A stretch of 64,000 nucleotides of DNA from an uncultured candidate division Zixibacteria bacterium. Its GTDB lineage: Bacteria; Zixibacteria; MSB-5A5; UBA10806. The translations under genes and the position numbers were made by a program. The DNA is taken from positions 1,376,001-1,440,000 of the forward strand of contig CAWDFP010000006.1 of assembly GCA_963801605.1 (NCBI GenBank). The letters are read 5' to 3'. Position 1 is the stretch's first letter. Each line of letters starts with the position of its first letter. Positions 48,487 to 64,000 of the stretch are shown here, piece after piece. The notes beneath the pieces are model-generated. The model was not told the DNA's origin. It did not search any database and saw nothing but the letters and a program-made list of their open reading frames with translations.

Positions 48487-48568
48487 GCGGAAGTGGCGGA
48501 ACTGGCAGACGCGCCATCTTGAGGGGGTGGTGCCGAAAGGCGTGAGGGTTCAAGTCCCTCCTTCCGCA
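48487..48568 (+). tRNA. tRNA-Leu (anticodon GAG), CCA not encoded
   Basis: GCGGAAG/CTTCCGC acceptor stem, D arm GCGGAACTGGCAGACGC, anticodon arm CCATC-TTGAGGG-GGTGG, long variable arm, GGGTTCAAGTCCC T arm. Confidence 0.95.
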
Positions 48569-48979: not shown

Positions 48980-49460
48980 CTAGTAGGGGAGAAGATTGAT
49001 TTTTTCGCGGTTCACATCGGGGGCATGGTAAGCGTAAATGAGCGTTGACTGAATATCGGAATGCCCCATCCACGCTTGGATATCTCGAATCGGCACTCCC
49101 GATGCAAGGGTATACGTTCCAAACGTACGACGCAAGTCGTTCAGTTTGTCTAATTGCCCAAGTTTTTGTAATTATCTCTGGTAAGCTAATGACAATTCCT
49201 GTGGCCTGTGGTACTTAATGGTTACCCCTTCTTTTTTGCTTCTGGGAAGTGCCCATGAATCCTTGAGCACATTGGTTTGCTTGAGAATTTTAGCCAGCTG
49301 ATGACTCAGGGGGATCGTACGTGGCCGCTTACCTTTGGAAGTATAGCTGCGATCGGACCGTATTTTTATTTCCATCTTCTTGAAATCGATGTCCGACATT
49401 TTTAATTCAACCATTTCAGATCTTCGCAAACTAGAATATACTCATAATCCAATCAGCCTC
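48980..49460 (-). pseudogene. Tyrosine recombinase/integrase remnant (catalytic domain only)
   Basis: One frame reads LRRSE...L...DIDF...SKGKRPRTIPL, in-frame TAA (49172-49174), then NDLRRTFGT...GVPIRDIQAWMGHSDIQSTLIY, TAG at 48980; a further stop upstream and no N-terminus. Confidence 0.88.
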
Positions 49461-49532: not shown

Positions 49533-49670
49533 TCAATTTGGTTTTCCACTGCCGGGTACCGAAGCGTTCTTAGATTGCTTCTCCTGCTTTCTCAATGTCT
49601 CCTGGCCCTGTTTATCTAACTTTTGTTTTTGGCTCTTGTTCTTATCCTTTTTCCCGCCTTTGTCTCCCAT
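49533..49670 (-). CDS. 45-aa Lys/Gln-rich small protein (MGDKGGKKDKNKSQKQK...), missed by the ORF track
   Basis: AAGGAG 7 nt before the ATG at 49670; TGA at 49533-49535. Confidence 0.65.
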   Translation of the reverse strand: MGDKGGKKDKNKSQKQKLDKQGQETLRKQEKQSKNASVPGSGKPN

Positions 49671-50044
49671 TTCGTGACTCCTTTCAATTTACCATTTTCC
49701 CTCTTACTGAGGAGGGCATTAGCCGCACCATAGATTTAAGGCGGCTAATCTGCATCGTATTTAAGGCCATTAGTATAAATTACAATAATTATCTATAATA
49801 TTATAGCCCGCCAATTAATTAGTGTCAACCAGAATCAAGGTAAATGGTCGAGTTGGCGGTTCGAGTTTGATGTCTATTGCTGCCATATTATTTGTACTAA
49901 GGCAATTCATTTTCAACTTGACGAATTAGGCTTTTTTTTGCTAATCTTGGCATTCGTAATACCCGCTTGCCCCGCTGTTATAATGGTAGGGGTGTCGCGG
50001 CGGCCAGAACATTAACGCCTAGACGGTTGTGGAGGCACAATCGA

Positions 50045-50716
50045 ATGTCGAAAATCAGAGTACTGCTGATCGAAGATAACCGCCTTCTACGAGAAGGCAT
50101 AGAAGCCATGCTCAACGAGCAGGAGGATATCAGGGCACTTTCGGCCGCCGGGAATGGTGATGCCTTTGAAAAAGCGGAGAAGCTCAATCCACATGTCGTC
50201 CTCCTGGATCTTGGTCTCAGGAGCCAAAACAGCCTAAAGGTGGTAGGACACATCAGGAAGAAGTTTCCCGGGACAGAGGTGGTCGTGATGGATCTTATTC
50301 CCGTGCATGCCGAGGTCATTGAATTCGTGAAAGCCGGTGTTTCGGGCTTCATTCTCAAAGACGCCACTCTCGATGATTTTCTGCATACCATCAGGTCAGT
50401 TGCGAAAGGGAAAAAAGTTCTTCCGCCACCATTAACCGATTCGCTCTTTTCCCATATTGTCGAGCACGCTGTCCAGGCGGGTAAAGTAGACGAACTAATC
50501 GAGTCGGTTAAGTTGACTAAAAGGGAACAGGATGTAATAGATCTGATAGCCCTTGGCCGAAGCAATAAGGCAATCGCCTCGGAACTTAATATCGCTATCC
50601 ATACAGTCAAAAGCCATGTGCATAATATTCTCGAAAAGCTGGCCCTGCATACGCGTCTTGAATTGGCCAGTTTCGCTCATACCAAAAACACAAATATCGA
50701 TAACTCTGAACGGTAA
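50045..50716 (+). CDS. NarL/FixJ-family response regulator (REC + LuxR HTH), paralogue 1
   Basis: ATG at 50045 after GGAGG; IEDN, VVLLD, GFILKD, LTKRE..V, SNK.IA..L.I...TVKSH. Confidence 0.9.
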   Translation: MSKIRVLLIEDNRLLREGIEAMLNEQEDIRALSAAGNGDAFEKAEKLNPHVVLLDLGLRSQNSLKVVGHIRKKFPGTEVVVMDLIPVHAEVIEFVKAGVSGFILKDATLDDFLHTIRSVAKGKKVLPPPLTDSLFSHIVEHAVQAGKVDELIESVKLTKREQDVIDLIALGRSNKAIASELNIAIHTVKSHVHNILEKLALHTRLELASFAHTKNTNIDNSER

Positions 50717-50747
50717 CCTAAGAACCGTAAGTAGAAATCAATCAAAG

Positions 50748-50857
50748 GGATTAGACCCTTTTTCAATCCTTAGAGCGATTGACCCAATTTTAAATCTTTA
50801 TATAATAGGTCCATAGATATGTACCGTTTTCCGGAAGACTAAAAGGGGGCTTCCGGA
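50748..50857 (+). promoter_or_regulatory. Conserved island promoter module, copy 1
   Basis: CCCTTTT-TCAATC-CTTAGAGC-GATTGA overlapping -35 TTGACC (50779), 16 bp, TATAAT (50801), AGGTCCATAGA, then a GGAAG/CTTCC hairpin. Confidence 0.8.
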
Positions 50858-50961
50858 GAACTGAATTTTCATGAAGTTTGATTCATGAAGAGGCGAACTC
50901 GGCGAGGGGACAATCAATTAAGGGACGAGTTAGAATATTATTGTGTGGTGATGAGGTTATC

Positions 50962-51075
50962 ATGAAAACCCTGAAGGAGATTACCGTCGAGTTAGACTTG
51001 CTTTTTGCAAGGCTGTTCAACATGGACGATAAGGTAGAAATGCTGGAACAGCAAATTGGGGGAGTATCAGTCTGA
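50962..51075 (+). CDS. Short helical/coiled-coil ORF; may continue to ~51168 via a frameshift in the G5 run at 51058-51062
   Basis: GAGG before ATG; first ORF after promoter copy 1; the shifted frame reads EYQSDYLEELDNSKAEQKQ... Confidence 0.35.
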   Translation: MKTLKEITVELDLLFARLFNMDDKVEMLEQQIGGVSV

Positions 51076-51516
51076 TTATCTGGAGGAACTCGATAATTCT
51101 AAGGCGGAGCAAAAACAAATTGTAATTGATTCAAAAAATATAAGTAAGGAATATTGGGGTACCTTGTAGAGTATTTCAAAATTCAATTGCCATTTATCAT
51201 GATGCAATTTGGCATAATTTATTAATGGTTCATAGAGAAATAAAATAAGGACATTGTTCGAATCTACATAACCGGGATCAAGGAGCGGTAGGGCGTTCTC
51301 TGGAAACCCATGAGGGGTCTTTAGAGAAATAATATTCCCTGGAATGAGGGGAAATTTCCAGGGAAAAGATCCCCCGAGAAGCTGATAAGGCTTCCGGGGG
51401 AGTAAATAAGACTCAGGAATAAATCAAGATCGGGAAATTATAAATGCTCCCACAGCCAAGTTGTATTCGTCCGAACGCCCGTACGTATGCCTAACAATTA
51501 ATAGATAGGATTTTCC

Positions 51517-52056
51517 ATGACCTATGAAACGATAGGGAAAAATGAACTCCAAGACGAGGCCCTATTAAATCTGGATGCTATCTGGCAAACAGCTCTATGG
51601 TTCGCCAATAGCGACCACGAAGCTGAAGACCTGGTTATGAATACCTACGTGAAAGCCTCTACGTTTTGGGTTGATACTATTTCCAAAGACGGCTGTAAGG
51701 CCCAATTGTTCAAGGTTTTGATGAAGTTGCTCTTTGGAAAAACCCGGCTGAATTTCCGCGCACATTCATCCGTCAGTTTCGAAAATATGCATGATTCAAT
51801 ACCACCAGATAAAGTTTCAGAATTCGAGACAATTCCCAGGGACGTGATAATTGGGGCCATCAAGGGGCTTCCGGTAGAAATTCGCCTGGTTATGGTATTA
51901 TCGATTTTTGAAAAGTTCTCATATCAAAAGATCGCCGAAATATTAGGCGTTCATAAGAAGGCTGTAAGACTAAATATATATCAAGGATATATGCTTCTTC
52001 GACGAGATATCATCGATTCTTTTGCTGCGGGGAATAATAAAATGGCAGTTGGATGA
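51517..52056 (+). CDS. Divergent ECF-type sigma factor-like protein
   Basis: EAL..LDA....AL......EAEDLV..TY.KA (region 2) and LP...R....L...E.FSY..IAEILG (region 4). Confidence 0.72.
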   Translation: MTYETIGKNELQDEALLNLDAIWQTALWFANSDHEAEDLVMNTYVKASTFWVDTISKDGCKAQLFKVLMKLLFGKTRLNFRAHSSVSFENMHDSIPPDKVSEFETIPRDVIIGAIKGLPVEIRLVMVLSIFEKFSYQKIAEILGVHKKAVRLNIYQGYMLLRRDIIDSFAAGNNKMAVG

Positions 52057-52089
52057 TACCAAAGAATCAAATTCGCAAGGGGGCAATCT

Positions 52090-52471
52090 GTGACGAAATA
52101 CGTGGAACTCGATAGACTTAGACCTAACAGTTGGTTTCTTAATAGGAAAAAGGTTGAAATTGTCCGCCAAATTTGGCGCGAAGGGAAGCAGCATCATCTC
52201 CATTGCTATACTTGTAACCACCATCGATAACGAACTAAGTTTGCTTGATGGCCATTGCCGGGCTTTTGTAGCCTGGGAAAATGGAGCTTTAGAAATTCAG
52301 GCGAATATTGTATCACTCGACCAGGTCAGCGGCCCCACGGAATTATATATTATCTTTCATCATCAAGCGCCCAGCGTCGGTATTCGAAATGTTCATGATC
52401 TAGGCAAAAGAATATATGATTTGTCTGATACAACCGACCCTGACATCGCGATTGCAATTACAGACGTATAA
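52090..52471 (+). CDS. ParB/Srx-like domain protein, frameshifted near 52200
   Basis: GTG at 52090 reads TKYVELDRLRPNSWFLN...; the next frame reads ILVTTIDNELSLLDGHCRA (DGHxR motif). Confidence 0.5.
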
Positions 52472-52539
52472 GTTGGAAATATAAGCCTTAGTTGCAATAG
52501 AATATTCAATGCGCAAATACATAATATTTGGATAATTAA

Positions 52540-52566
52540 AAAGGCCAGGCAAATTGCCTGGCCTTT
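52540..52566. terminator. Probable bidirectional terminator between convergent genes
   Basis: AAAGGCCAGGCAA/TTGCCTGGCCTTT stem with A/T flanks. Confidence 0.75.
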
Positions 52567-52601
52567 AATAATTCCATCTATGTGAGTGAAATTACATGCT
52601 G

Positions 52602-52877
52602 TTAATAGCGGGAACCGCGGTCGCGGTTGTCTGTGCGTGGACGAGCCTCGCTGACAGTTATCGAACGACCATCGAGATCCTTGCCATTAAGATTGAGAAT
52701 GGCTGCGTCGGCTTCAGTTTTATTCGGCATTTCAATAAAGCCGAACCCCTTTGACTCGCCGCTCATCTTGTCTTTGATAATGTTGGCGGTCGAAACCTGG
52801 CCATGGCTTTCAAACGCCTGTCGAAGGCTGTCAACTTGTGTCTGGTGTGATAGATTTCCGATGAATATATTCATCAT
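52602..52877 (-). CDS. RRM-domain RNA-binding protein
   Basis: RNP2 IFIGNL, RNP1 KGFGFIEM, LNG..LDGR.I.V.EARP. Confidence 0.93.
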   Translation of the reverse strand: MMNIFIGNLSHQTQVDSLRQAFESHGQVSTANIIKDKMSGESKGFGFIEMPNKTEADAAILNLNGKDLDGRSITVSEARPRTDNRDRGSRY

Positions 52878-53132
52878 TTCTCCTTTTTTCGTTCATCTCG
52901 CGACTTGCATCGATTAAGACGCACATTCTGGCAAAATAAACAGATTCTTGCGCGTTATTGCGCTTGACTCCGGGATTAATATTTTGCCAAGGATTGGGTG
53001 TTAGGCAAGGCTTGAGAAAACTTAATTAGGGAGGTCGTTAACATAATGATAATAACTATTAGATTCTTGAATGTCAAGGAATATCTTCTGGTTATAACAG
53101 ACAAATCAACCTTTGAGACTTAACACAAAAAC

Positions 53133-54075
53133 TCAACTTTGTTGTTCAAGCCATTTTAGGATGACACTTAAGCTTCCGGTTGCCAGTGCAATGCTCGAAT
53201 CCGCCGCTCCATAATATAGGTGAATGGTATCACCATCCGGAGCAATTGTGCAGCCACACGGGAATACAACGTTATCGACATCACCGCGCTGTTCGTATGG
53301 TTTTACCGGACCGAATATCCATTCGTCGCCTCGTTTAAGGCACTTTTCCGGCGCTTGTAAATCAAACAACGCCAGGCCAAGCCGATAAATTGCGCCAGCT
53401 GCATTTTGTCGAACACCGTGATAGATTACAAGCCAACCTCTTTCCGTTTCGATGGGCGGAGACGAGAGTCCGATTTTATTTGCATCCCACCATCCACCAA
53501 GCCGAGCTTCCAACATCATTTTATGATTACCCCATTGACGCAAATCGGAAGAATAGGAAATCCACATGTGCGCCCCTGGCGAACTTACCGGACGGTGGAT
53601 CAAGGCCCAATTTCCGTCAATCCGATGCGGCAAAAGAGCCGCGTCTTTATCTTCCGGCTGCATAATTAAACCGTATCGTTCAAAGTGTCGAAAATCTTCT
53701 GTGAGGGCCAGGGCTACACCTGGCGCCATCACGCGTGTAGGCAGTGTATACGACGGCGTAATTCCTTAATTCTGGTACATAAGTAATGCGCGGATCTTCA
53801 ATGCCCCACAATTCTTCCGGAAAACGTTCGGGATCGGCCATTAAAGTGGGCTGTGAATCAATTTTCCAGTTATCGATGCCGTTGGCTGAGCGGGCCGCGC
53901 ATAAGTGAGAATGACCTCGACGATCTTCCACTCGACACAACAACAGAGTGGTTCCATCCGGCAACAATACCGCTCCAGGGTTGAATACGCTATGCACTGG
54001 GTAAGGCCAGTCGGCGGCGGTTAGGATTGGGTTTAGATTATGGCGAATAAATAATTCGGGATATTGATTGCTCAT
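53133..54075 (-). CDS. GH130-family glycosidase/phosphorylase, split by one frameshift near 53725
   Basis: VFNPGA, GIEDPRI, DKDAAL, KIG...PPIET..GWL.IYHGV, GDV.NVVFP, YYGAAD; junction reads RDG|PGVALA if one base is removed; TAATG coupling to the upstream gene. Confidence 0.85.
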
Positions 54076-56354
54076 TATGATCCTATCTCTGTGGTTAGAA
54101 GGGGATTTTCTGCCAGTCGCAATTCCAGCAATGATTGAAGAAAGGCCAGAGTCGATTCCGCGCCTTGATTCTCGTTTGGTCGGTCAGGATGCAAGCCATC
54201 CCTGCAGCCGCCTGTTGTTGGGTCGTAAAGCGGAAGGTTCAAGTCGTTGCGCCCAAGAAACCATTCGAAGGCGCGACGGGCTTCTTTACGCCATTGTTTA
54301 TCGCCAGTGGTCCTAAAAGCTTCGAGACAAGCGGATACCATCGCCTGAGCTTCTATCGGCTGCTGATCGAATCGAGCGCGCTCGCCATCTTGATGATAAA
54401 AGCCATTAGATCCGATCGGAACAAAGTGCCCGGCTTTGGAGCGCTGCAGATCAGCCAGCCAGTGGAGTGCCTCAAGTGCATTCTCAATCATGGCGGTATT
54501 CGGAATCCATTGGCCGCACATAAGCATCGCGTGCGGCAAGGCAGCGTTACAGTAGGTCAGCTTGTCTTCATACCAACGCCATTTCTCCGAACTATTACTT
54601 TTATACATTGCCAGCAACCGCCCGGATAATTCCTCCCTGACCTGGTTGGCTCTACTGTCTCCGGTAAACCGTTGCAGGTATTCATGAATTCCGATAAGCG
54701 CGAAGGCCCAGGCTCGAGGGCTGGTCGTGTTGATAATTGCGGGCAAAGCCTGCTCAAACAACCGACCGGCCATACTCTGTAAGGACGGTATGTTCGAGCG
54801 TCCGAGGACTGTGCCCAACGCCCATAGTGTACGACCATGGCTATCATCCGATCCATTGACTTCCAGCCAATTACGCTGGTAATCCATAAAATTGCGGAAG
54901 TATCCCGTTTCAGTATTAAAGGCATACCAAATAAAAGCAAGATAACGAGTGGCAAATTCAGTGGCCTCCTCATTTCCAGTTGCTTCCAAAAGAGCGCTTA
55001 CCATCAACGCGCGGGCATTATCATCGGTGGTGTAACCCTCGATATAGTTGGGGATCGTGAAAATAGCATGCTGCAAAATGCCGGTTTCATCCGTCATGTG
55101 GCGCAAGTGGTCAATTTTAAGTGGCGGCAATTCACCTGGGCGTTTGTCTAACGGCTTGACTGCGAGCTCCTGGCGAGAAGAATGACGCCGCTCCGCTCGG
55201 GCCCGTTCAAAGCTCTCCATATAACGGCTGGCGACTTGTGGCCAGATCATATCTCGTCCAAAAACGTATGCCTTTTTGCGCATGGCATGACGCAGGGATT
55301 CATTATCCAAAAGGTTGATTACCTGATTGGCCATCGCTACTGGATCTCGGAATGGTACCAGCGCCCCGCGTCCATCTGCCAGCATTTCCTCTGCGTACCA
55401 GTAAGGAGTTGAAATGACCGCCTTTCCTGCTCCCACAGTATATGCCAGCGTACCAGACGTGATCTGGGCAGCATCGAGATATGGTGTGATATAAATATCC
55501 GCCACGCTAATGAACTGAATAAGCTCATCCAAACTGACAAAGCGATCATAAAAGATCACCTGGCCTTCTACACCTTTTTCCTGGGCCAGCCATTGCAGAG
55601 ACAGTCTATACGATTCGCCTTCATTTAGCAGTACGTGTGGATGGGTAGCACCCAGAATGATGTATACTACATTTGGGTGTTTGGCCAATATATCAGGTAA
55701 AGCGGAAATTACGTTCTCGATCCCTTTATTCGCTGATAGTAAGCCAAAGCTAAGCAGGACAATTTTACCTTCCACTCCAAACAGGTCTTTGTGAAAACTG
55801 GGATCAACAAATGGCACATCGGGTATGCCGTGTGGGATCAAGTCAATCTTACCGGGATCTACACCATATACTTCTTGCAGGAATTCAACTCCTCGAGCGC
55901 TCATAACCACCAATCGATCTGACAAAGCTGCCACTTCTTTTAATACCCGTAGCTGATTGAGATCGGGTTCGCGCAGTATTGTATGGAGGGTTGTAACAAT
56001 GGGCATCCGCAATTCGCGCAAGAGCGCTAGAATATGGCTGCCCGCCCGTCCTCCAAAAATTCCATACTCGTGTTGCAGGGATATGAGATCTACATCGTTA
56101 ATATTCAAGAAATCTGCGGCGCGGCGATAGGAATTAATATCCTTCTCCGTGAGTTCAAATCGGACGCGGGTCGGATATGAGTAACCGGCCTCGATGTCAT
56201 TGACAGGCAGAACAATGCACGTCTTTTGGCTATATTGGGTGGAAATAGCCTCGCACAAATCGGTGGTAAATGTTGCAATGCCACAATGGCGGGGCAAGTA
56301 GTTGCCGATAAATGCAATGCGATCAAGTTTCGAATTGTTTGAGCTATCATCCAT
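54075..56354 (-). CDS. GT4 glycosyltransferase fused to a C-terminal helical (glycosidase-like) domain
   Basis: PRHCGIATF, QHEYGIFGG, IPHG, FGLLS.NKGIE, QITSGTL; C-terminal YTTDDNARAL, FDQQP.EA, NENQGAESTL. Confidence 0.88.
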   Translation of the reverse strand: MDDSSNNSKLDRIAFIGNYLPRHCGIATFTTDLCEAISTQYSQKTCIVLPVNDIEAGYSYPTRVRFELTEKDINSYRRAADFLNINDVDLISLQHEYGIFGGRAGSHILALLRELRMPIVTTLHTILREPDLNQLRVLKEVAALSDRLVVMSARGVEFLQEVYGVDPGKIDLIPHGIPDVPFVDPSFHKDLFGVEGKIVLLSFGLLSANKGIENVISALPDILAKHPNVVYIILGATHPHVLLNEGESYRLSLQWLAQEKGVEGQVIFYDRFVSLDELIQFISVADIYITPYLDAAQITSGTLAYTVGAGKAVISTPYWYAEEMLADGRGALVPFRDPVAMANQVINLLDNESLRHAMRKKAYVFGRDMIWPQVASRYMESFERARAERRHSSRQELAVKPLDKRPGELPPLKIDHLRHMTDETGILQHAIFTIPNYIEGYTTDDNARALMVSALLEATGNEEATEFATRYLAFIWYAFNTETGYFRNFMDYQRNWLEVNGSDDSHGRTLWALGTVLGRSNIPSLQSMAGRLFEQALPAIINTTSPRAWAFALIGIHEYLQRFTGDSRANQVREELSGRLLAMYKSNSSEKWRWYEDKLTYCNAALPHAMLMCGQWIPNTAMIENALEALHWLADLQRSKAGHFVPIGSNGFYHQDGERARFDQQPIEAQAMVSACLEAFRTTGDKQWRKEARRAFEWFLGRNDLNLPLYDPTTGGCRDGLHPDRPNENQGAESTLAFLQSLLELRLAENPLLTTEIGS

Positions 56355-56818
56355 GCCTAAAATCTCTTTCCCTGCAACAAGCCTGCCCTTTGGCTGCTAA
56401 AGCTCTATTAACATAAAGAGGCGGTTGCTCCCGCGACTGCCCCTACAAGCACCTTAATAGACACCTGTAAATCCTTGCCAATCGGATATCGGAATTGGTT
56501 TTTATTATAATAACTAGATTCCGGCTCGAATGCAAGTCATATAACCAAGCTCCCTCGGATAGCTCAATGAAAATGAAGGGCGCCGAACAATACAATTTTT
56601 TCAATTCGAGATTAATGGCTTGATCTCAAATTTGATTTTATTCTCGAAATAGAAAGAAAATCATAAAGGCTAAAAGAAAGGCTTTCTAACAATTTTCTAA
56701 CATAACACGGCGTAATGTGGAATAAAACGGGACAATACCGGAAAAGACAGCCAGGCGTTAGTCTTTGCCCTCGTTGTCGCTTATTGTTCGGTAATGACCC
56801 GTGTTAGGTGGTTATATC

Positions 56819-56866
56819 CGGCTTATAACCCAAAGGTCCTAAGCTTAAATCCCAGCCCCGCTACCA
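56819..56866 (+). pseudogene. Degenerate 3' half of an initiator tRNA-Met (att-site-like remnant)
   Basis: CGGCTTATAACCCAAAGGTC...AAATCC...CCCCGCTACCA resembles tRNA-fMet GGGCTCATAACCCGAAGGTC...CAAATCC...CCCCGC(A/T)ACCA; no 5' half; followed by a hairpin and T-run (56871-56910). Confidence 0.7.
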
Positions 56867-57003
56867 AGTTAAGCCGCTGAGGTTCAACAACTCAAGTGGT
56901 TGCGTTTTTTAGGAACACCTTCGATTTTAGGGTTGACAATGTTACGTTAATCTTTTATTTTTTTTGTTGGGTTACCCAATAATTTCTTAAGGAGGAATTA
57001 TAG

Positions 57004-57693
57004 GTGCAGAAGATACAGGTGCTATTGTTAGAAGACAATCGCCTGCTTCGTGAAGGAATCACCAAAATGCTGAATGCCGAGGCGGATATCAAGGTGATTT
57101 CGTCTACTGACAGCGGTGACATCTTTGAGAATGCAAAAACACCGGCGCCAGATGTAGTGCTACTCGATTTAGGCCTAAAAGATCAAAACAGTCTGACGGT
57201 GGTCGAAGTAATCAGAAAACAATTTCCGACTACATATGTGGTTGTCATGGACCTGATACCGGCGCATGCGGAAATTGTTGAATTTGTCAAAGCTGGAGTT
57301 GCAGGTTTTATCCTCAAAGACGCGACTCTTGATGATTTTCTACATACGATCAGATCGGTTAGCAAAGGGGAAAAAATTCTCCCTCCTACGATGGCCGGTT
57401 CGCTTTTTTCTCAAATCATAGAGCATGCGCTTCAGGGCGGGAAAATCGAGGAATTAAAATCAGCAGTCAAAATGACCGCCCGTGAGCGGGACGTAATTAG
57501 TCATATCGCCGCCGGAAAAAGCAATAAAGAGATCGCCAGTGATCTCAATATTGCTGTTTATACGGTTAAAAGCCATTTGCACAACATCCTGGAAAAACTG
57601 GCTCTTCACACTCGTCTGGAGTTGGCGACATTCGCGCATTCACAACAAATAAGCCATAAACCATCCGCTGGAACTCCCGAAGATAGCGATTAG
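57004..57693 (+). CDS. NarL/FixJ-family response regulator, paralogue 2
   Basis: AAGGAGG before GTG; same motifs as paralogue 1. Confidence 0.9.
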   Translation: MQKIQVLLLEDNRLLREGITKMLNAEADIKVISSTDSGDIFENAKTPAPDVVLLDLGLKDQNSLTVVEVIRKQFPTTYVVVMDLIPAHAEIVEFVKAGVAGFILKDATLDDFLHTIRSVSKGEKILPPTMAGSLFSQIIEHALQGGKIEELKSAVKMTARERDVISHIAAGKSNKEIASDLNIAVYTVKSHLHNILEKLALHTRLELATFAHSQQISHKPSAGTPEDSD

Positions 57694-57707
57694 CATATCT
57701 ATCAAAA

Positions 57708-57776
57708 GAATTAATCCTTTTTTCATCCCTTCGAGCGATTGATTCTAATCGAATTGGTCGTATCCTTTACATAGAA
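57708..57776 (+). promoter_or_regulatory. Conserved island promoter module, copy 2
   Basis: CCTTTTT-TCATCC-CTTCGAGC-GATTGA; TTGATT (57739), 16 bp, TATCCT (57761), CATAGA. Confidence 0.75.
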
Positions 57777-57859
57777 ATTTATAATGCTTTGGACTTTTCC
57801 CGCTAAGCTTACCCGGCCTGGAAAGGTCATCCGCTAATTAATAAGGGGAGTGTTCAGTT

Positions 57860-58513
57860 ATGAAAAAGATAAAAGTATTGCTAATCGAAGACAATCGTCT
57901 TCTGCGAGATGGGACAACCGCACTTCTTAATGAACAAGAAGACATTCGGGCAGTTTCTTCCCCGGGTAACAAAAGTGCGCTTGAGAAAGCCAAAAAGCTG
58001 GCGCCGGATGTGGTCTTGCTCGATTTGGGCCTAAAGAGCAATAATAGTATGAGGGTGCTCGAATCAATAAAGAAACAACACCCTCAAACGGAAGTTGTCG
58101 TCATGGACTTGATCCCGGTACATTCGGAAGTTGTTGAATTTGTAAAGGCTGGAGTCGCAGGTTTTATCCTCAAAGATGCGACTCTTGATGATTTTCTACA
58201 TACGATCAGATCGGTTGTCAAGGGAGAGAAGATTTTACCTCCGACAACGGCCGGCTCGCTTTTTTCTCAAATCGTGGAGCACGCGCTGCAAAGCGGCCAA
58301 ATTGACGAGGTGATGTCTACCCTTAAAATGACCAGCAGAGAGAATGAAGTGATCAACCATATAGCCAGGGGAAAAAGCAACAATGAAATTGCAGATGCGC
58401 TCAACGTTGCAGTTCATACAATCGAAAACCATATACGTAACATTTTGGATAAGTTAGCCCTTCATACGCGCCTTGAATTGGCCACACTCACTCATATTAA
58501 AGAAGTTTTGTAA
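57860..58513 (+). CDS. NarL/FixJ-family response regulator, paralogue 3
   Basis: Same architecture as paralogues 1 and 2; recognition helix reads TIENH. Confidence 0.9.
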   Translation: MKKIKVLLIEDNRLLRDGTTALLNEQEDIRAVSSPGNKSALEKAKKLAPDVVLLDLGLKSNNSMRVLESIKKQHPQTEVVVMDLIPVHSEVVEFVKAGVAGFILKDATLDDFLHTIRSVVKGEKILPPTTAGSLFSQIVEHALQSGQIDEVMSTLKMTSRENEVINHIARGKSNNEIADALNVAVHTIENHIRNILDKLALHTRLELATLTHIKEVL

Positions 58514-58561
58514 CCGTCTGTAAAGACCAGGATAGGTTGTCGATTTATCCCTCGCTCTAAA

Positions 58562-58621
58562 GGGGTAGCTATTTTTTCAACCTTTTGGGCGATTGACCAA
58601 CCCCGGCGTATCTATTAAACT
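58562..58621 (+). promoter_or_regulatory. Conserved island promoter module, copy 3
   Basis: TTTTT-TCAACC-TTTTGGGC-GATTGA; TTGACC (58593), 17 bp, TAAACT (58616). Confidence 0.72.
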
Positions 58622-58974
58622 AAGTTAATTATACGACATTTCTATGGAGCATATCTTCCGCTAGCACAAATCGCGTATAATCGACAATTATTAATTGGTT
58701 ATTGAAACAGGCTTTACTAAAGCAATGGAAAAGAGAGACGGTTGTTTGCGTGCGATTTAGGCGGGGAGAAATCCAGGCTTGTTATTACGATGGCCATGTA
58801 GATTGCTGCACAACGTCTAAGGCAAGTATAAAAAGATCAAGTTTATGAAGGGAATGGAGGTCCTTTTTATATACTTTAAATAGATACATTAGGGTCGAAC
58901 GACCAGCCTGAATCTCGATAAGTTGAGACCGGGTTTTGATTCACAAAAACAGGTAAAACCAAAGGAAATACATC

Positions 58975-59511
58975 ATGCGTTACATACTAGCATTAATTGC
59001 GGCAGTGCTTTTTTCGAGCGCTTTAAGTGCGCCAGCAAGCGCAGAGGTTAATATCAGTGTTAACTTCAACGTGGATCGTCAACCAATTTGGGGGCCGACC
59101 GGCTACGATCATGTTGATTATTACTATCTTCCGGACATTGACATTTATTACTACGTTCCCCAGCACAGATATTTCTATTTTGAAAAAGAACAATGGAGGA
59201 ATTCCACATCGTTACCGAGCTGTTATCGGGGATTTGATTTTTACCACTCTTACAAAGTAGTAATAAACGAGCCAACCCCTTACCGTAATGACAAAATGTA
59301 TAGAGATAGATATGCTTCGTATAAAGGTCGTCACGATCAAGAGGTAATCCGCGACAGCCGCGATTCAAAATATTTTGTAAACCCAAAACATCCCGAACAT
59401 AAAAACTGGGTAAAGCAAAATAAGCAAGCCAAGAATAATGGACGGGGTAATGGCAATGATCAGGGTAATCGCAATGGAAACGATCACGGTAATAACTCCG
59501 GACGAAAGTAG
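58975..59511 (+). CDS. Exported Tyr-rich hypothetical protein with N/G-rich tail
   Basis: AAGGA RBS; signal peptide; QP.WGP.GY..V.YYYLPDI..YY. Confidence 0.75.
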   Translation: MRYILALIAAVLFSSALSAPASAEVNISVNFNVDRQPIWGPTGYDHVDYYYLPDIDIYYYVPQHRYFYFEKEQWRNSTSLPSCYRGFDFYHSYKVVINEPTPYRNDKMYRDRYASYKGRHDQEVIRDSRDSKYFVNPKHPEHKNWVKQNKQAKNNGRGNGNDQGNRNGNDHGNNSGRK

Positions 59512-59646
59512 CCGATTCGTAATGTGAGGTCTGTTTAAGGGCTTTGGCAAGTATACTGATTCCGCTTCGTCGATTTAGAGATATCGGCGAAGCGGGTTAA
59601 ATCAATTTCGGAAATCATAAAAGCTATTAAGACAGATAGAGCGAAT

Positions 59647-61368
59647 ATGGGTTTCAGGAATATGCGACCGATCTTAGAAGGGCAAATGATTGGCGTTAGG
59701 AAGAGATCAATTAGGATAAATGCAGGAACGATAAAACTGATGGCCTTAGTTGCGCTCATCTTAATATTAGTGTTTTCTATGCCTCTGCAAGCACAGGATA
59801 CCGGTAAGGACGATAAAGGAACTTCGCTGAATTCTAAAACGGTGGCAGATTCGACCGCCGTTAAACAAGCCGCACCAATTCCCAAGACTCCTGCAGATAC
59901 TGTTGCCGCTGAGAAAGTTGCACCACCGCCAAAGGCGGGAGCAGATTCATCCGCAATACAGAAGCGAATTGAAGTTCATTCCGAATTGGGCTTAAATACC
60001 AAATGGTATTCGGCGAGAGACTCTATTTTTTACACCAAGTACAACAAGTACGGTTATTTGAAGGATGACGACCCTGTATACAATCCTAAAAAGCCCTGGT
60101 GGCATGTGGCTCTTAAGATTACTGCCTCCAATGTTTTTACAAATACTTATGACATGCATATTCTAAAAGATAACTTTGCGAGAGTGAGCATTCATTCATG
60201 GTCTCATAATATAAAGACAGGATGGGAATGGGATACAGATAGATTCGGAATGAATTTTTTCTTTCATCCATATTCAGGGGCAAGTTATTTCAATTCGGCT
60301 CTTTCCAGTGGATATAATTACTATCAGGCGATCCCCTTTGCAATCGGTGGCAGTTTGATGTGGGAATATTTTGGGGAAAACACTCTTCCGTCGTACAACG
60401 ATATTATCAACACTCCTGTCAGCGGCATGTTTTTGGGAGGAATACTCTACCGGATAAGTTCGAATATTTTGGATGACAGAGCCACCGGTATCGGTAGGTT
60501 TTGGCGAGAGTTAGCAGCTGCGGCCGTAGATCCTTCCAGAGGTTTTGGCAGGCTTACATCGGGCAAGCTTTGGAGGCATACATCGAGAGAGATATATCAG
60601 AAAGAACCTCTTAACATTACATTATCCACCGGGTTGCGTAAACTAAATAATGGACATAGCTTTGGAACGGGATCCAATAGCGCAACATTCAACATTCATC
60701 TTGATTACGGAAATCCGTTCGAAGTAAGATCTCGAAAGCCCTTTGATTACTTTAAATTTCGAACCGATTTAAATTTCGGCGTGGGCAGGAAAACTCTGGA
60801 TAATATAACTGGCTCCGGAATCATATATGGCAATAATTATCATATCGGCTCATTGGAAATGCTGGCGGGTATATTTCAACATTATGACTATTGGGACAAC
60901 AAGACTTTTGAGTTGGGCACAATGGCCTTCGGCGGTGGTGTTGTTTCCAAATTACCCCTCACGAAGAACTCTCAGCTTTACATAACAATTCACCTTAATA
61001 TTGTGCCTCTTGCCGGAAACAGCACCCAATACGGACCCGATACATCTCAATTTAGAGACTATAATTACGGTGGCGGATTCGGAGGAAAAATCGATAACAC
61101 TCTCGAAATTGGGAAAGCGGTTAGCGCTACCTTCATCGGATATTATTATTGGATTCATACCTATGTCGGCCATAAAGGGGATCATTACTTAGGTTTGATC
61201 AGGCCCAGAATCGAACTCAGAATGATTCGCAATTTTAGCCTGGGATTTGAACATCTGGTCTATTACAGCGATAGATACCCGACTGATTTTCCTTCAATCC
61301 ACAAAGTACGGACTGAGCAGAGGGTATATTTAAAAGTATATTTTGAACAGTTCAAGCGAAAAGAATGA
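59647..61368 (+). CDS. DUF3943-like outer-membrane protein (true start probably later, e.g. near 59740)
   Basis: W.WD.D.F..N...HPY.G..YFN.A, GS..WEY.GE...PS.ND..NTP; beta-strand-rich C-terminus. Confidence 0.75.
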   Translation: MGFRNMRPILEGQMIGVRKRSIRINAGTIKLMALVALILILVFSMPLQAQDTGKDDKGTSLNSKTVADSTAVKQAAPIPKTPADTVAAEKVAPPPKAGADSSAIQKRIEVHSELGLNTKWYSARDSIFYTKYNKYGYLKDDDPVYNPKKPWWHVALKITASNVFTNTYDMHILKDNFARVSIHSWSHNIKTGWEWDTDRFGMNFFFHPYSGASYFNSALSSGYNYYQAIPFAIGGSLMWEYFGENTLPSYNDIINTPVSGMFLGGILYRISSNILDDRATGIGRFWRELAAAAVDPSRGFGRLTSGKLWRHTSREIYQKEPLNITLSTGLRKLNNGHSFGTGSNSATFNIHLDYGNPFEVRSRKPFDYFKFRTDLNFGVGRKTLDNITGSGIIYGNNYHIGSLEMLAGIFQHYDYWDNKTFELGTMAFGGGVVSKLPLTKNSQLYITIHLNIVPLAGNSTQYGPDTSQFRDYNYGGGFGGKIDNTLEIGKAVSATFIGYYYWIHTYVGHKGDHYLGLIRPRIELRMIRNFSLGFEHLVYYSDRYPTDFPSIHKVRTEQRVYLKVYFEQFKRKE

Positions 61369-61417
61369 AACACTTTTTGGTAATATTGGGAAGAGTTTGA
61401 AGGCTTCATTAAATATT

Positions 61418-62194
61418 ATGCGACGAAGAATTATATTATCATTCCTTCTTGTATTCATCTACGAATCCTCGCTGTTTGCGCAAAACCATTACAATATCTC
61501 GCGGTTTACACATGAAACCGGTGATTTCTTCAAACAACCTGGCAATTGGCAAGGCAACGATTGGCTTAAATTTAGCCTGTTAGCTTCTGGAACAATTTTA
61601 GTAATGCAAGTTGATCGGCCAATCCGCGATGTTGTCCTAAGAAATAACGGAAGTTACTACCACAGCATTCCGATTGAAGCCGGTAGAGTTTGGGGGGAAT
61701 GGTATACCCCGCCTGTCGTCGTAGGCGGGTTCGCGCTGCATGGATGGCTGGCGCATAATAGCTCGTCAAGAAAAGTCAGCTTTGAAATATTGCAGGCCGT
61801 GCTCTACTCCGAGTCAATTACGGGAGTATTAAAATTCGCTTTTGGAAGGGCCAGGCCGTACGAGAACGAAGGCGCATTCTCTTTTCATCCATTCTCGTTC
61901 AAGAAAGTCGGCTTTCAATCATTCCCCGGCGGACATAGCACCGAAGGTTGGGCAATGTCGGCGGTTCTTTCTCGAAACGCCCAATCAACTGCATTGAAAA
62001 TCGCTGCTTATGCCCCGGCAATACTTACTTTTGTATCACGAATTTATCAGGATCAACACTGGACATCCGATTGTTTTCTCGGCGCCGCAATCGGATATAC
62101 AGTCGGGAATTGGGTTGTGGATATTCATGAGGAAAAGGCATCGGCGGTGAAAGTTTCGGCGATCTATCCATTTATTCTAAGAATCAGCTTTTAA
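61418..62194 (+). CDS. PAP2-family phosphatase
   Basis: K...GRARP, SFPGGH, SRIY..QHW.SD; signal peptide from the ATG at 61418. Confidence 0.85.
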   Translation: MRRRIILSFLLVFIYESSLFAQNHYNISRFTHETGDFFKQPGNWQGNDWLKFSLLASGTILVMQVDRPIRDVVLRNNGSYYHSIPIEAGRVWGEWYTPPVVVGGFALHGWLAHNSSSRKVSFEILQAVLYSESITGVLKFAFGRARPYENEGAFSFHPFSFKKVGFQSFPGGHSTEGWAMSAVLSRNAQSTALKIAAYAPAILTFVSRIYQDQHWTSDCFLGAAIGYTVGNWVVDIHEEKASAVKVSAIYPFILRISF

Positions 62195-62254
62195 TTAGCA
62201 GAATAATCCACCAATCGCGCTCCGTAAAATTACCCGAAAGTGTCTCATCCCAAT

Positions 62255-62360
62255 GGACTAACCCCCTTTTCAATCCTTTGGGCGATTGATAATAAAGCAT
62301 ATCAATATATAATAGGTTCATAGAAAAGTATTAATCGTGGGAAGACAATAGGGGGCTTCC
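62255..62360 (+). promoter_or_regulatory. Conserved island promoter module, copy 4
   Basis: CCCCTTT-TCAATC-CTTTGGGC-GATTGA; TTGATA (62286), 16 bp, TATAAT (62308), AGGTTCATAGA, then a GGAAG/CTTCC hairpin. Confidence 0.8.
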
Positions 62361-62417: not shown

Positions 62418-63077
62418 ATGTATAAGTCTAAATTAGTGATTCTCTGTTCTGCAATTTTCCTGAGTGTAACCTTGCTTTTAGCCGGAGGCTGCCAACAGGG
62501 CGCGGAAAATGCCTCGGCGGCCAAAAGCAACGTTACTCCTGTTGTACCGCAGCAAGCCAAGCTGATCGTTCCGGGTTCGACACAGTTCCTCGTCACCCTT
62601 AATGAGACTGTGGAAACCAATAAAAACCAGGTTGGTGACATTGTTAGTGGCCAACTGGCTAAATCCATCGATGTGGCAGGAAAGGTAGTCCTTCCCGAGG
62701 GGTCGAATGTTAATATGATCATCACCCAGCTTGTTAAAGGGGGTACGATGAAAACGAGACCTGAAATCGCCTTTACTATCAGGGATATCACCCTGGCCGA
62801 TGGGAGGGTCTATTCCATAGAGTCAAACCAAGTCTATGAAAAGGGACGAAGTCACACCGGGCGTGAGGTTGGAATGATCGGTGGCGGAGCAGCAGCGGGC
62901 GCGGTTGTTGGCGCCTTGCTTGGTAAAGGGAAAGGGGCCGTTATCGGAGCGGTTGCCGGAGCAGCGGCAGGAACCGGCGCTTCGGCTCTAACGGGTCGAC
63001 AGAATCTGGTTTATTCGGCTGGCGAGATGATAACTTTCACTTCGACACAACCAATAACCGTGACCATGCGGCGGTAA
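62418..63077 (+). CDS. Glycine-zipper lipoprotein
   Basis: GGAGG before the ATG at 62418; AGGC lipobox; IGGGAAAGAVVGALLG.GKGAVIGA. Confidence 0.8.
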   Translation: MYKSKLVILCSAIFLSVTLLLAGGCQQGAENASAAKSNVTPVVPQQAKLIVPGSTQFLVTLNETVETNKNQVGDIVSGQLAKSIDVAGKVVLPEGSNVNMIITQLVKGGTMKTRPEIAFTIRDITLADGRVYSIESNQVYEKGRSHTGREVGMIGGGAAAGAVVGALLGKGKGAVIGAVAGAAAGTGASALTGRQNLVYSAGEMITFTSTQPITVTMRR

Positions 63078-63144
63078 TGATTCAGGGGGTTGTTAGTTTA
63101 ATAATAGGAGTTTTCAGCGTAACATTTTCTGAAAGGATTGAAAA

Positions 63145-63651
63145 ATGAAAAATTGGATTACCATCACATTTATTATTCTGCTATTCGCGGTTACTGCGAA
63201 TGCCGGCAGCCGTCACATCGGTTATTACGGCATGGGGCCGCGGGTTGGATTTACGATTAATCCCGACCAGTTTCATTTCGGGGGCCAGGTGGATTTCGGA
63301 GAAATCACCACTAATTTGATGATGGTTCCGAATTTGGAAATCGGGTTTGGCGATAACCTGACTACGGTTGCACCATCTTTTGAGCTTGATTATCGCTTTC
63401 GCACTGATTGGGGAGTCTGGTCGCCATATCTGGGCGGCAGCGCGGGCCCGATTTTCTATTCATACAGGCATCATGGCAACGATCCTTACGGGCACAATGG
63501 CAGCGATACCCAATTTGGTTTATATATTCAAGGCGGAATCCTCAAAGGATTTTCTGGCAGAAATTCGGGATATTTCTTCATGGAAGGCAAGCTTGGACTG
63601 GCCGATGCGCCCGATGCGAAGTTTACTATCGGTTGGACATTCGGGAATTAA
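63145..63651 (+). CDS. Small outer-membrane beta-barrel-like protein
   Basis: Signal peptide; alternating strands, PYLGG..G, C-terminal FTIGWTF. Confidence 0.7.
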   Translation: MKNWITITFIILLFAVTANAGSRHIGYYGMGPRVGFTINPDQFHFGGQVDFGEITTNLMMVPNLEIGFGDNLTTVAPSFELDYRFRTDWGVWSPYLGGSAGPIFYSYRHHGNDPYGHNGSDTQFGLYIQGGILKGFSGRNSGYFFMEGKLGLADAPDAKFTIGWTFGN

Positions 63652-63852
63652 CCGTTGACTAAACCATTGGAAAATTTGACTCCCGGAAAGCAAATTGTTT
63701 TGCTCAGGGGGGCAACACGAGGAATGCGTAGATAACAAAATGACCATCAAGGCATCGTAATCCTCGACTGATTAGATTAAAGGATTTACGCCGGCCGATA
63801 GGGGGATTTATCGGTCGGCGGCAATTCCCAAACTTAGGGAAAGGAGATTTAT

Positions 63853-64000
63853 ATGTTGTGGACAATAGCAGTAGTGCTGCTGATTTTATGGGCACTAGGA
63901 TTAGTTGCCGGCTACACGATAAGTGGATTCATTCACGTTTTGCTGGTGATCGCAATTATAGTCGTACTGATTCGGGTAATAACCGGACGAAGGCCCGTTT
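63853..64000 (+). CDS. lmo0937-family small membrane protein (stop just beyond window), missed by the ORF track
   Basis: AAGGAG RBS; MLWTIAVVLLILWALGLVAGYTISGFIHVLLVIAIIVVLIRVITGRRPV. Confidence 0.85.
   Translation, partial: MLWTIAVVLLILWALGLVAGYTISGFIHVLLVIAIIVVLIRVITGRRPV

Follow-up and report, generated by a model that had tools for sequence, protein, structure and literature searches.

Several bacterial regulatory systems resemble the one described here, a repeated promoter module that stands beside three genes for NarL/FixJ-family regulators (R1, R2 and R3) in a 64,000-nucleotide stretch of DNA, hereafter the window, from an uncultured candidate division Zixibacteria bacterium (assembly GCA_963801605.1, contig CAWDFP010000006.1, positions 1,376,001 to 1,440,000). 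The enterobacterial RcsB/RcsA system combines a constitutive regulator with an inducible partner, much like the regulator pair predicted here, and mycobacterial DosR/DevR binds cooperative tandem sites and governs a stress regulon that includes its own locus, which is like the predicted system as a whole. Both have known kinases, unlike the regulators here, and RcsB and DevR are only distantly similar to them (38-47 bits for the RcsB model and 97 bits for DevR). The general stress regulons of SigB, RpoS and EcfG have overlapping markers, such as CsbD, YtxH, lmo0937, BON, ferritin and PRC-barrel proteins, but the common promoter feature here is an activator site on a sigma-70-type promoter and not an alternative-sigma promoter.

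In E. coli, NarL binds a 7-2-7 site at -43.5 of the yeaR promoter (PMC10853779), and at ogt, where the sites lie at -44.5 and -77.5, it can activate from -44.5, -67.5 or -77.5 (PMC7419079), in both cases according to the available part of the paper. The system here has in common with these promoters the NarL/FixJ fold, a 7-2-7 site abutting the -35 box, a two-site promoter and, in 116 of 120 close members of the regulator clade, a lysine equivalent to the base-contacting Lys188 of NarL. It differs in the half-site sequence, in having a fixed 9-bp spacer and a fifth half-site, in having no NarX/Q-type kinase and in the replacement of the catalytic Thr/Ser of the receiver. The regulators score 120-141 bits against the NCBIfam NarL model, the cut-off being 250, and no named equivalog (NarL, NarP, RcsB, UhpA or others) reached its cut-off among the best 25 NCBIfam models per protein. 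The likeness to LiaR, CesR and VraR consists of the best match among solved structures (PDB 5HEV), a 16-bp inverted repeat with T at position 1 and C at position 6 (the CesR/LiaR box is TCAGHCTnnAGDCTGA), envelope-related targets and a flanking A/T run, which matters for LiaR binding (PMC4447274, available part). LiaR and VraR however keep the Thr and have cognate kinases, whereas the regulators here are orphans of diderm phyla with a tandem operator and targets clustered in islands. BldM and WhiI of Streptomyces form an orphan NarL-family pair with phosphorylation-independent activity, and by analogy the pair here could form homo- or heterodimers; in contrast to BldM and WhiI, which are unlinked, have dedicated sigma factors and show other pocket defects, the second regulator copy (B) here stands directly behind a module, or box, that follows the first copy (A) (PMC4125116).

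We think it probable that the module is a conserved tandem 7-2-7 site joined to a sigma-70 promoter, and the predicted operator of an orphan clade of pseudo-receiver NarL regulators, which would use it to switch on a regulon of stress and envelope genes that lie clustered in islands. The module is far more widespread than the window and, as predicted from sequence comparison, a real conserved operator-promoter module of this clade. The predicted activation resembles the well-known activation of the NarL and LiaR type, which limits the surprise.

The initial annotation had described a repeat of about 70 bp in four copies, built around the palindrome TCAATC-N8-GATTGA. All four are where it had placed them, on the forward strand, and the palindrome, which starts at 50763 (0 mismatches), 57723 (2), 58577 (1) and 62270 (0), is perfect in copies 1 and 4 and imperfect in 2 and 3. 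The claimed promoter boxes are borne out as well, the right arm of the palindrome giving the TTGA of the -35 box and a -10 box following 16-17 bp on (TTGACC-16-TATAAT, TTGATT-16-TATCCT, TTGACC-17-TAAACT and TTGATA-16-TATAAT in copies 1 to 4). A block said to be common to copies 1 and 4 is visible in the alignment, and a GGAAG/CTTCC hairpin folds in both leaders. The extent of the module had however only been half seen, since it runs 25 bp further upstream; the true starts are given in Table 1. Three copies do follow NarL genes, starting 21, 4 and 38 bp past the regulator stops, and copy 4 is preceded by a PAP2 gene instead.

The genome scan that had been proposed was run with a matrix built from the proximal parts of the four window copies, and in the 3.06 Mb genome it gave 5 matches at 35.7-37.7 bits, the next best reaching 21.9. 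With leave-one-out matrices only the five copies, among 6.1 million positions, score at least as high as the held-out copy, and a 45-bp matrix made from other genomes only finds exactly these five above 14 bits (41.6-57.3 bits). The four-copy repeat is not a chance pattern. The fifth copy (G000:C6:1442441, L081:3442) is outside the window, some 2.4 kb beyond its end, and stands in front of the gene for a protein of 1339 aa that combines bacterial Ig domains with a secretion C-terminal sorting domain. All five copies share one strand, and the region that holds them starts behind a tRNA-Leu and integrase fragments. No weak boxes were found before GT4/GH130, R1 or R2 in this genome, and the plasmid collection gave no match at E 1e-40.

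The anatomy of the module becomes clear from 79 loci of related regulators, which come from Zixibacteria, Ignavibacteriota, metagenome-assembled genomes labelled Bacteroidota, Calditrichota, Deferrimicrobium and Abyssobacteria. An iterated matrix of the proximal part gave 183 matches in 72 of these loci, against 0-2 in five Markov shuffles, and 177 of the 183 are on the same strand as the regulator. According to the logo of the 181 unique sites the module is 41 bp long and consists of a distal 16-bp site (TCAnYC-n4-GRnnTA), a 9-bp spacer and a proximal 16-bp site (TCAWYC-n4-GnnCKA), both of the NarL-type 7-2-7 form, abutted by the TTGA of a sigma-70 -35 box. The distal block emerged in the logo though the matches were chosen on the proximal half only. 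TAnnnT stands 16-18 bp past the -35 box in 131 sites, 106 of them at 17 bp, compared with 8-26 at shifted offsets. Five half-sites can be read, each with T at position 1 and C at position 6, the third overlapping the second by TA and lying 11 bp ahead of the fourth. On the proximal 16-bp axis the symmetric pairs T5-A20 and C10-G15 hold in 97% and 98% of the sites, and the same pair pattern holds in 73% and 72% at the distal site. The module thus has, as far as sequence can tell, the 7-2-7 inverted-repeat geometry of the NarL/FixJ family, and if +1 lies 7 bp after the -10 box its two sites would centre near -43.5 and -68.5.

The 20-bp palindrome, which the initial annotation took for the binding unit, did not survive this comparison. 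The conserved unit is the two 7-2-7 sites with the fifth half-site, and we rejected the 20-bp axis since, of its six pairs, two are present in no more than 20-22% of the 181 sites; these pairs are weak because the right end of the palindrome is the -35 box. Perfect 20-bp palindromes are nonetheless common in Zixibacteria.

The repeat could also be imagined as an RNA hairpin or intrinsic terminator behind the regulator genes, or as a selfish repeat or recombination site, with a coincidental likeness to a promoter. Parts of copies 1 and 3 do score terminator-like, and boxes coincide with rearrangement junctions. Four axes were examined, however, and on none of them does Watson-Crick pairing rise above column-frequency expectation; the folding z-scores average -0.5. 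These results argue that the module is not a structured RNA. There is no matching Rfam family either, and a hairpin, terminator or Rfam element was rejected on these grounds. The -10 box is conserved at a fixed spacing, and boxes are also found in divergent intergenic regions, so this whole line of explanation seems hardly credible to us.

The promoters of B-type regulators (57751-57766, and those in L006, L009 and L087) have GTCGTA at the start of the -10 region, possibly an extended -10 or an extra contact. The regulator-negative genomes G045, G047, G140, G029 and G150 have a 7-2-7-like motif that is related to the module but distinct from it. This motif ends in TATGAT and may serve another NarL-family regulator.

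A motif distributed independently of the regulators would, in the view of the initial annotation, have spoken against its proposal, but the module tracks the regulator in both genome sets. In the window's phylum (151 genomes, at most 2 mismatches) 35 of the 39 genomes with the regulator have the pattern, compared with 23 of the 112 that lack the regulator. Many single matches in the latter are likely due to chance, because a reversed control pattern also matched once each in 16 of the 151; fifteen of the 17 genomes with at least 3 matches have the regulator. In an Ignavibacteria class (101 genomes, at most 1 mismatch) the counts are 13 of 20 and 3 of 81, and the control had 0 matches. Fisher p values of 1e-14 and 4e-9, respectively, are overstated, as kin are not independent. 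The box starts 3-100 bp past the stop codon in 85 of the 115 regulators with enough flank, and boxes cluster in islands, all 19 of genome G151 lying within 69 kb. In a metagenome scan with the motif only (45 loci, some overlapping) a regulator ends at most 200 bp upstream in 27 and is present in the locus in 31. The co-distribution and the motif-only scan support what had been predicted, a module that would be bound by the NarL paralogues beside the -35 box.

A further thought is that some other factor, the ECF-like sigma protein or an unlinked regulator, reads the module, and that the NarL genes merely travel along in the islands. The ECF-like gene is frequent (15 of 79 loci) and a few genomes have boxes without a regulator, but the motif-only scan has the NarL gene directly upstream in most of its loci, the half-sites have a NarL-type geometry, the promoter part resembles sigma-70 promoters and not ECF ones, and besides the regulator no protein cluster occurs in more than 26 of the 79 loci. 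We hold this to be very unlikely.

There are nevertheless observations that weigh against the operator of a NarL clade as the best description. The search pattern came from regulator-adjacent sites and the related genomes are not independent, both of which inflate the association. No pattern match was found in 4 of 39 regulator-positive genomes of the window's phylum and in 7 of 20 of the Ignavibacteria class, while boxes without a clade regulator are present in 3 of 81 Ignavibacteria genomes. Genomes G008, G027, G111 and G137 have good boxes and only generic NarL proteins; the single perfect box of G027 (99% complete, 6 contigs) resembles a true orphan, and G008 has 4 boxes in 270 contigs, the two examined sitting at contig starts. 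No description of the box was found in the literature searched, from which subscription papers and supplements were excluded, and the available part of PMC8510549 covers CRP/FNR regulators only.

R1, R2 and R3 share 67-69% identity with one another and 28-33% with the one further full-length NarL protein that the genome has. PF00072 and PF00196 are above cut-off in all three, which places them in the NarL/FixJ family. An AlphaFold model of moderate quality (pLDDT 74.5, pTM 0.58), used for fold search only, matched DesR, LiaR, VraR and NarL, and the same four are the closest solved relatives. A canonical receiver needs DD, D, T/S and K, and a pseudo-receiver lacks at least one of these five active-site residues, according to the available part of PMC12632262. 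In the clade here the T/S is replaced and the canonical set of five is broken: D83 aligns with the Thr of LiaR and VraR and with the Ser of NarL, and of the 120 close members 117 have Asp there and the other 3 Gly. The residue that follows (T+1) is Leu in 118 of them, and the same source links large residues there to hindered phosphorylation. In a wider set of 134 representatives, those of the best 150 in the library that are 190-320 aa long, the Thr/Ser position is Asp in 64, Gly in 32, Asn in 25 and Ser in 2, with Thr/Ser in at most 4, and the phospho-acceptor D55 is kept in 94. Judged by their residues the regulators are pseudo-receivers under that definition, and we infer that they would act independently of phosphorylation.

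No linked cognate kinase, as expected of a canonical two-component system, is present in the island, and in this genome, which is 87% complete, the sole HisKA_3 kinase adjoins the unrelated NarL gene and neither HisKA_2 nor full-length KaiC was found. The operator and the regulators could still be the same and the regulators be ordinary phosphorylated ones, served by a distant or KaiC-linked HisKA_2/PAS kinase, with D83 as a tolerated variant. DD, D55 (120 of 120) and K105 (119 of 120) are kept in the close members, and HisKA_2/PAS kinases are boxed targets in Ignavibacteria, where KaiC also lies downstream of boxes; both facts count against our reading, and the incompleteness of the genome leaves room for a kinase. 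The kinase screen of relatives was a Pfam search of 81 proteins, most of them picked from 1124 open reading frames (ORFs) called in the loci. The near absence of Thr/Ser and the frequent loss of D55 in the wider set, the bulky Leu at a position where large residues are linked to hindered phosphorylation (PMC12632262, available part), and the missing HisKA_2 and KaiC of this genome all point the other way, and we find the phosphorylated alternative unlikely.

R1 and R2 have sigma-70-like promoter candidates of their own, without a box, and R3 sits behind copy 2, so that R2 is placed to drive R3, which is the wiring predicted by the initial annotation. On a tree made with a quick method from 119 proteins (one divergent row, L075_9138, was left out) R2 falls in a clade of 15, none of whose 13 assessable members has an upstream box. 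Its sister is another clade of 15 that includes R3 and is boxed throughout; the supports are 96 and 98 in the Shimodaira-Hasegawa-like approximate likelihood ratio test (SH-aLRT). R1 stands apart from both. Among Ignavibacteria, 15 of a clade of 27 second copies are boxed, as against 1 in the 44-member sister group. A single clade of boxed second copies was rejected by the approximately unbiased (AU) test on 37 rows (p 0.00034), for which the groups were named after the first tree had been seen, and gene conversion could mimic the result. The arrangement of unboxed copy A, box and boxed copy B is conserved and likely arose twice. The idea of a local, self-contained duplication is not supported, since R1, R2 and R3 belong to old separate lineages that are common to other phyla, and two of the five boxes in the genome have no regulator upstream.

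R3 has a Glu at the equivalent of NarL Lys188 (58422-58424 region), which among the 120 members is seen elsewhere only in its orthologue in the locus L001. The replacement may alter how R3 binds or make it a damper of the response. In genome G011 the box between both A-B pairs is degenerate or deleted, which also counts against the proposed wiring; since these boxes have decayed, the link from A to the B box is not obligatory. The locus in question, L087 (G011:C4:154000-173999), has two tandem A-B regulator pairs and three ECF-like paralogues.

In the pseudo-receiver operator model, we hypothesize that the response is started by R1 and R2, each expressed from a promoter of its own that has no box, and that regulator dimers bind near -43.5 and -68.5 and bring in RNA polymerase in the manner of NarL at yeaR and ogt. 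R3 would be induced through copy 2 and modulate the output; it might amplify it or, because its recognition helix is changed, damp it, possibly in a heterodimer. Regulator activity would be set by something other than a cognate kinase, and recombination from box to box could add or remove whole target cassettes.

The first genes after 202 boxes are the regulator itself (37), a family that we take to be B12-radical-SAM-like (23; a Pfam scan of its representative gave no match), ECF-like sigma (14), KaiC (14), a secreted protein of about 120 aa (13), an Ig-domain/ice-binding-like cluster (9), an OmpA cluster (9), MlaE (7), YtxH (5), PAS kinases (5), GT4 (4), lmo0937 (4), ATP-cone (3), CsbD (1) and ferritin (1). 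Genes for BON, PRC-barrel, superoxide dismutase and rubrerythrin proteins lie in the same loci. Boxed families of this kind resemble general-stress gene sets, and the cargo is stress- and envelope-like, as the initial annotation suggested, but the general-stress label is taken from family names only, which counts against the reading. The suggested link from R1 to the sigma-like gene is weaker in the window, where about 700 bp and a short ORF come between, and direct in relatives, as the boxed ECF-like genes show. GT4 and GH130, which it had counted as cargo, are on the minus strand and without a box in this genome; GT4 is boxed in relatives. The kaiC gene is present in 16 loci (L031, L032, L038, L049, L064 and others), with kaiB in 2, and is often the first gene past the regulator; in 14 cases, in loci of the Ignavibacteria type, it stands directly behind a box.

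The boxes also seem to be places where gene order changes. The close relative L001 is collinear with the window over 56991-58596 and again from 62268 onward, and the two stretches overlap in the proximal site. The single box of L001 joins the distal half of copy 3 to the copy 4 promoter. The 3.7-kb cassette between copies 3 and 4 was therefore gained or lost at the boxes. Comparison of 201 boxes gave 16 pairs with both flanks in common, 129 with the left only and 34 with the right only, and 8 chimera triplets, of which one (L006/L009) was set aside as an artefact of paralogues. The plain reading is ordinary recombination between short repeats; to suppose that shuffling is selected for would be speculation. 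A wider picture, tentative and rather doubtful, would be a portable kinase-free general-stress system of FCB-group bacteria, in which a twice-arisen pseudo-receiver NarL pair acts as a feedback switch in place of an alternative sigma factor, and the 41-bp operators double as recombination joints, letting cassettes be gained, lost and reordered and yet stay under control.

Transcriptional control seems to be little charted in Zixibacteria, Ignavibacteria and Calditrichota. A testable pair of regulator and operator defines a predicted regulon, with as many as 19 promoters in one genome, and brings many small and envelope proteins that lack annotation into a single predicted stress response. The sigma-70-type promoter should make the pair testable in E. 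coli. A large natural clade of pseudo-receivers that has kept the phospho-Asp and lost the Thr also bears on how pseudo-receivers are switched, a question raised in the available part of PMC12632262.

Table 1. Features of the island, with positions in the window
Feature	Position	Strand	Remarks
tRNA-Leu(GAG)	48487..48568	+	left island edge
Integrase fragments	48980-49429	-
R1 promoter candidate	49918..49947	+	sigma-70-like, TTGACG-18-TAATCT; no box upstream; consensus match only
R1	50045..50716	+	NarL/FixJ-family regulator, predicted pseudo-receiver: D55 kept, Thr/Ser site = D83, T+1 = Leu; single-copy type lineage
Module copy 1	50738..50806	+	distal 50738-50753, proximal 50763-50778, -35 50779-50784, -10 50801-50806; 49.9 bits (matrix from other genomes)
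37-aa predicted ORF	50962..51075	+	first frame after copy 1; no Pfam match for enclosing ORF
ECF-like sigma protein	51517..52056	+	Pfam: region 4 only; family often boxed in relatives
GH130 gene, split in two frames	53680-54075, 53133-53732	-	unboxed here
GT4 glycosyltransferase	54075-56354	-	unboxed here, boxed in relatives
R2 promoter candidate	56933..56961	+	sigma-70-like, TTGACA-17-TATTTT; no box upstream
R2	57004..57693	+	A-type regulator (unboxed clade)
Module copy 2	57698..57766	+	predicted R3 promoter; distal 57698-57713, proximal 57723-57738, -35 57739-57744, -10 57761-57766; 57.3 bits
R3	57860..58513	+	B-type regulator (boxed clade); Glu at NarL Lys188 equivalent
Module copy 3	58552..58621	+	distal 58552-58567, proximal 58577-58592, -35 58593-58598, -10 58616-58621; 50.7 bits; left junction of 3.7-kb segment missing from L001
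Cassette between copies 3 and 4	58975..62194	+	predicted secreted 178-aa protein; DUF3943 protein 59647-61368; PAP2 protein 61343-62194
Module copy 4	62245..62313	+	distal 62245-62260, proximal 62270-62285, -35 62286-62291, -10 62308-62313; 51.7 bits
Predicted copy 4 target operon	62418..64000, continuing past window	+	glycine-zipper lipoprotein to 63077; 168-aa exported protein 63145-63651; lmo0937-family membrane protein from 63853

Some smaller features of the island may be mentioned. The ECF-like gene and the gene downstream of it occur twice in the genome, at 51517-52230 of the window and at G000:C6:1456634-1457637, and of the downstream gene the island has a split copy, whereas the other copy is intact. 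The sigma protein of the island may be non-functional or a competing sigma, because Pfam matched region 4 only. The GH130 glycoside phosphorylase gene (53133-54075, minus strand), which is split here, is intact in L013 (318 aa). The island also has a gene for an RRM RNA-binding protein (52602-52877, minus strand), and RRM genes recur in 6 related loci. A short Lys-rich ORF (49533-49670, minus strand) lies behind a perfect TTGACA-17-TATAAT promoter (49828-49800), and short basic ORFs similar to it are boxed in L038 and L051.

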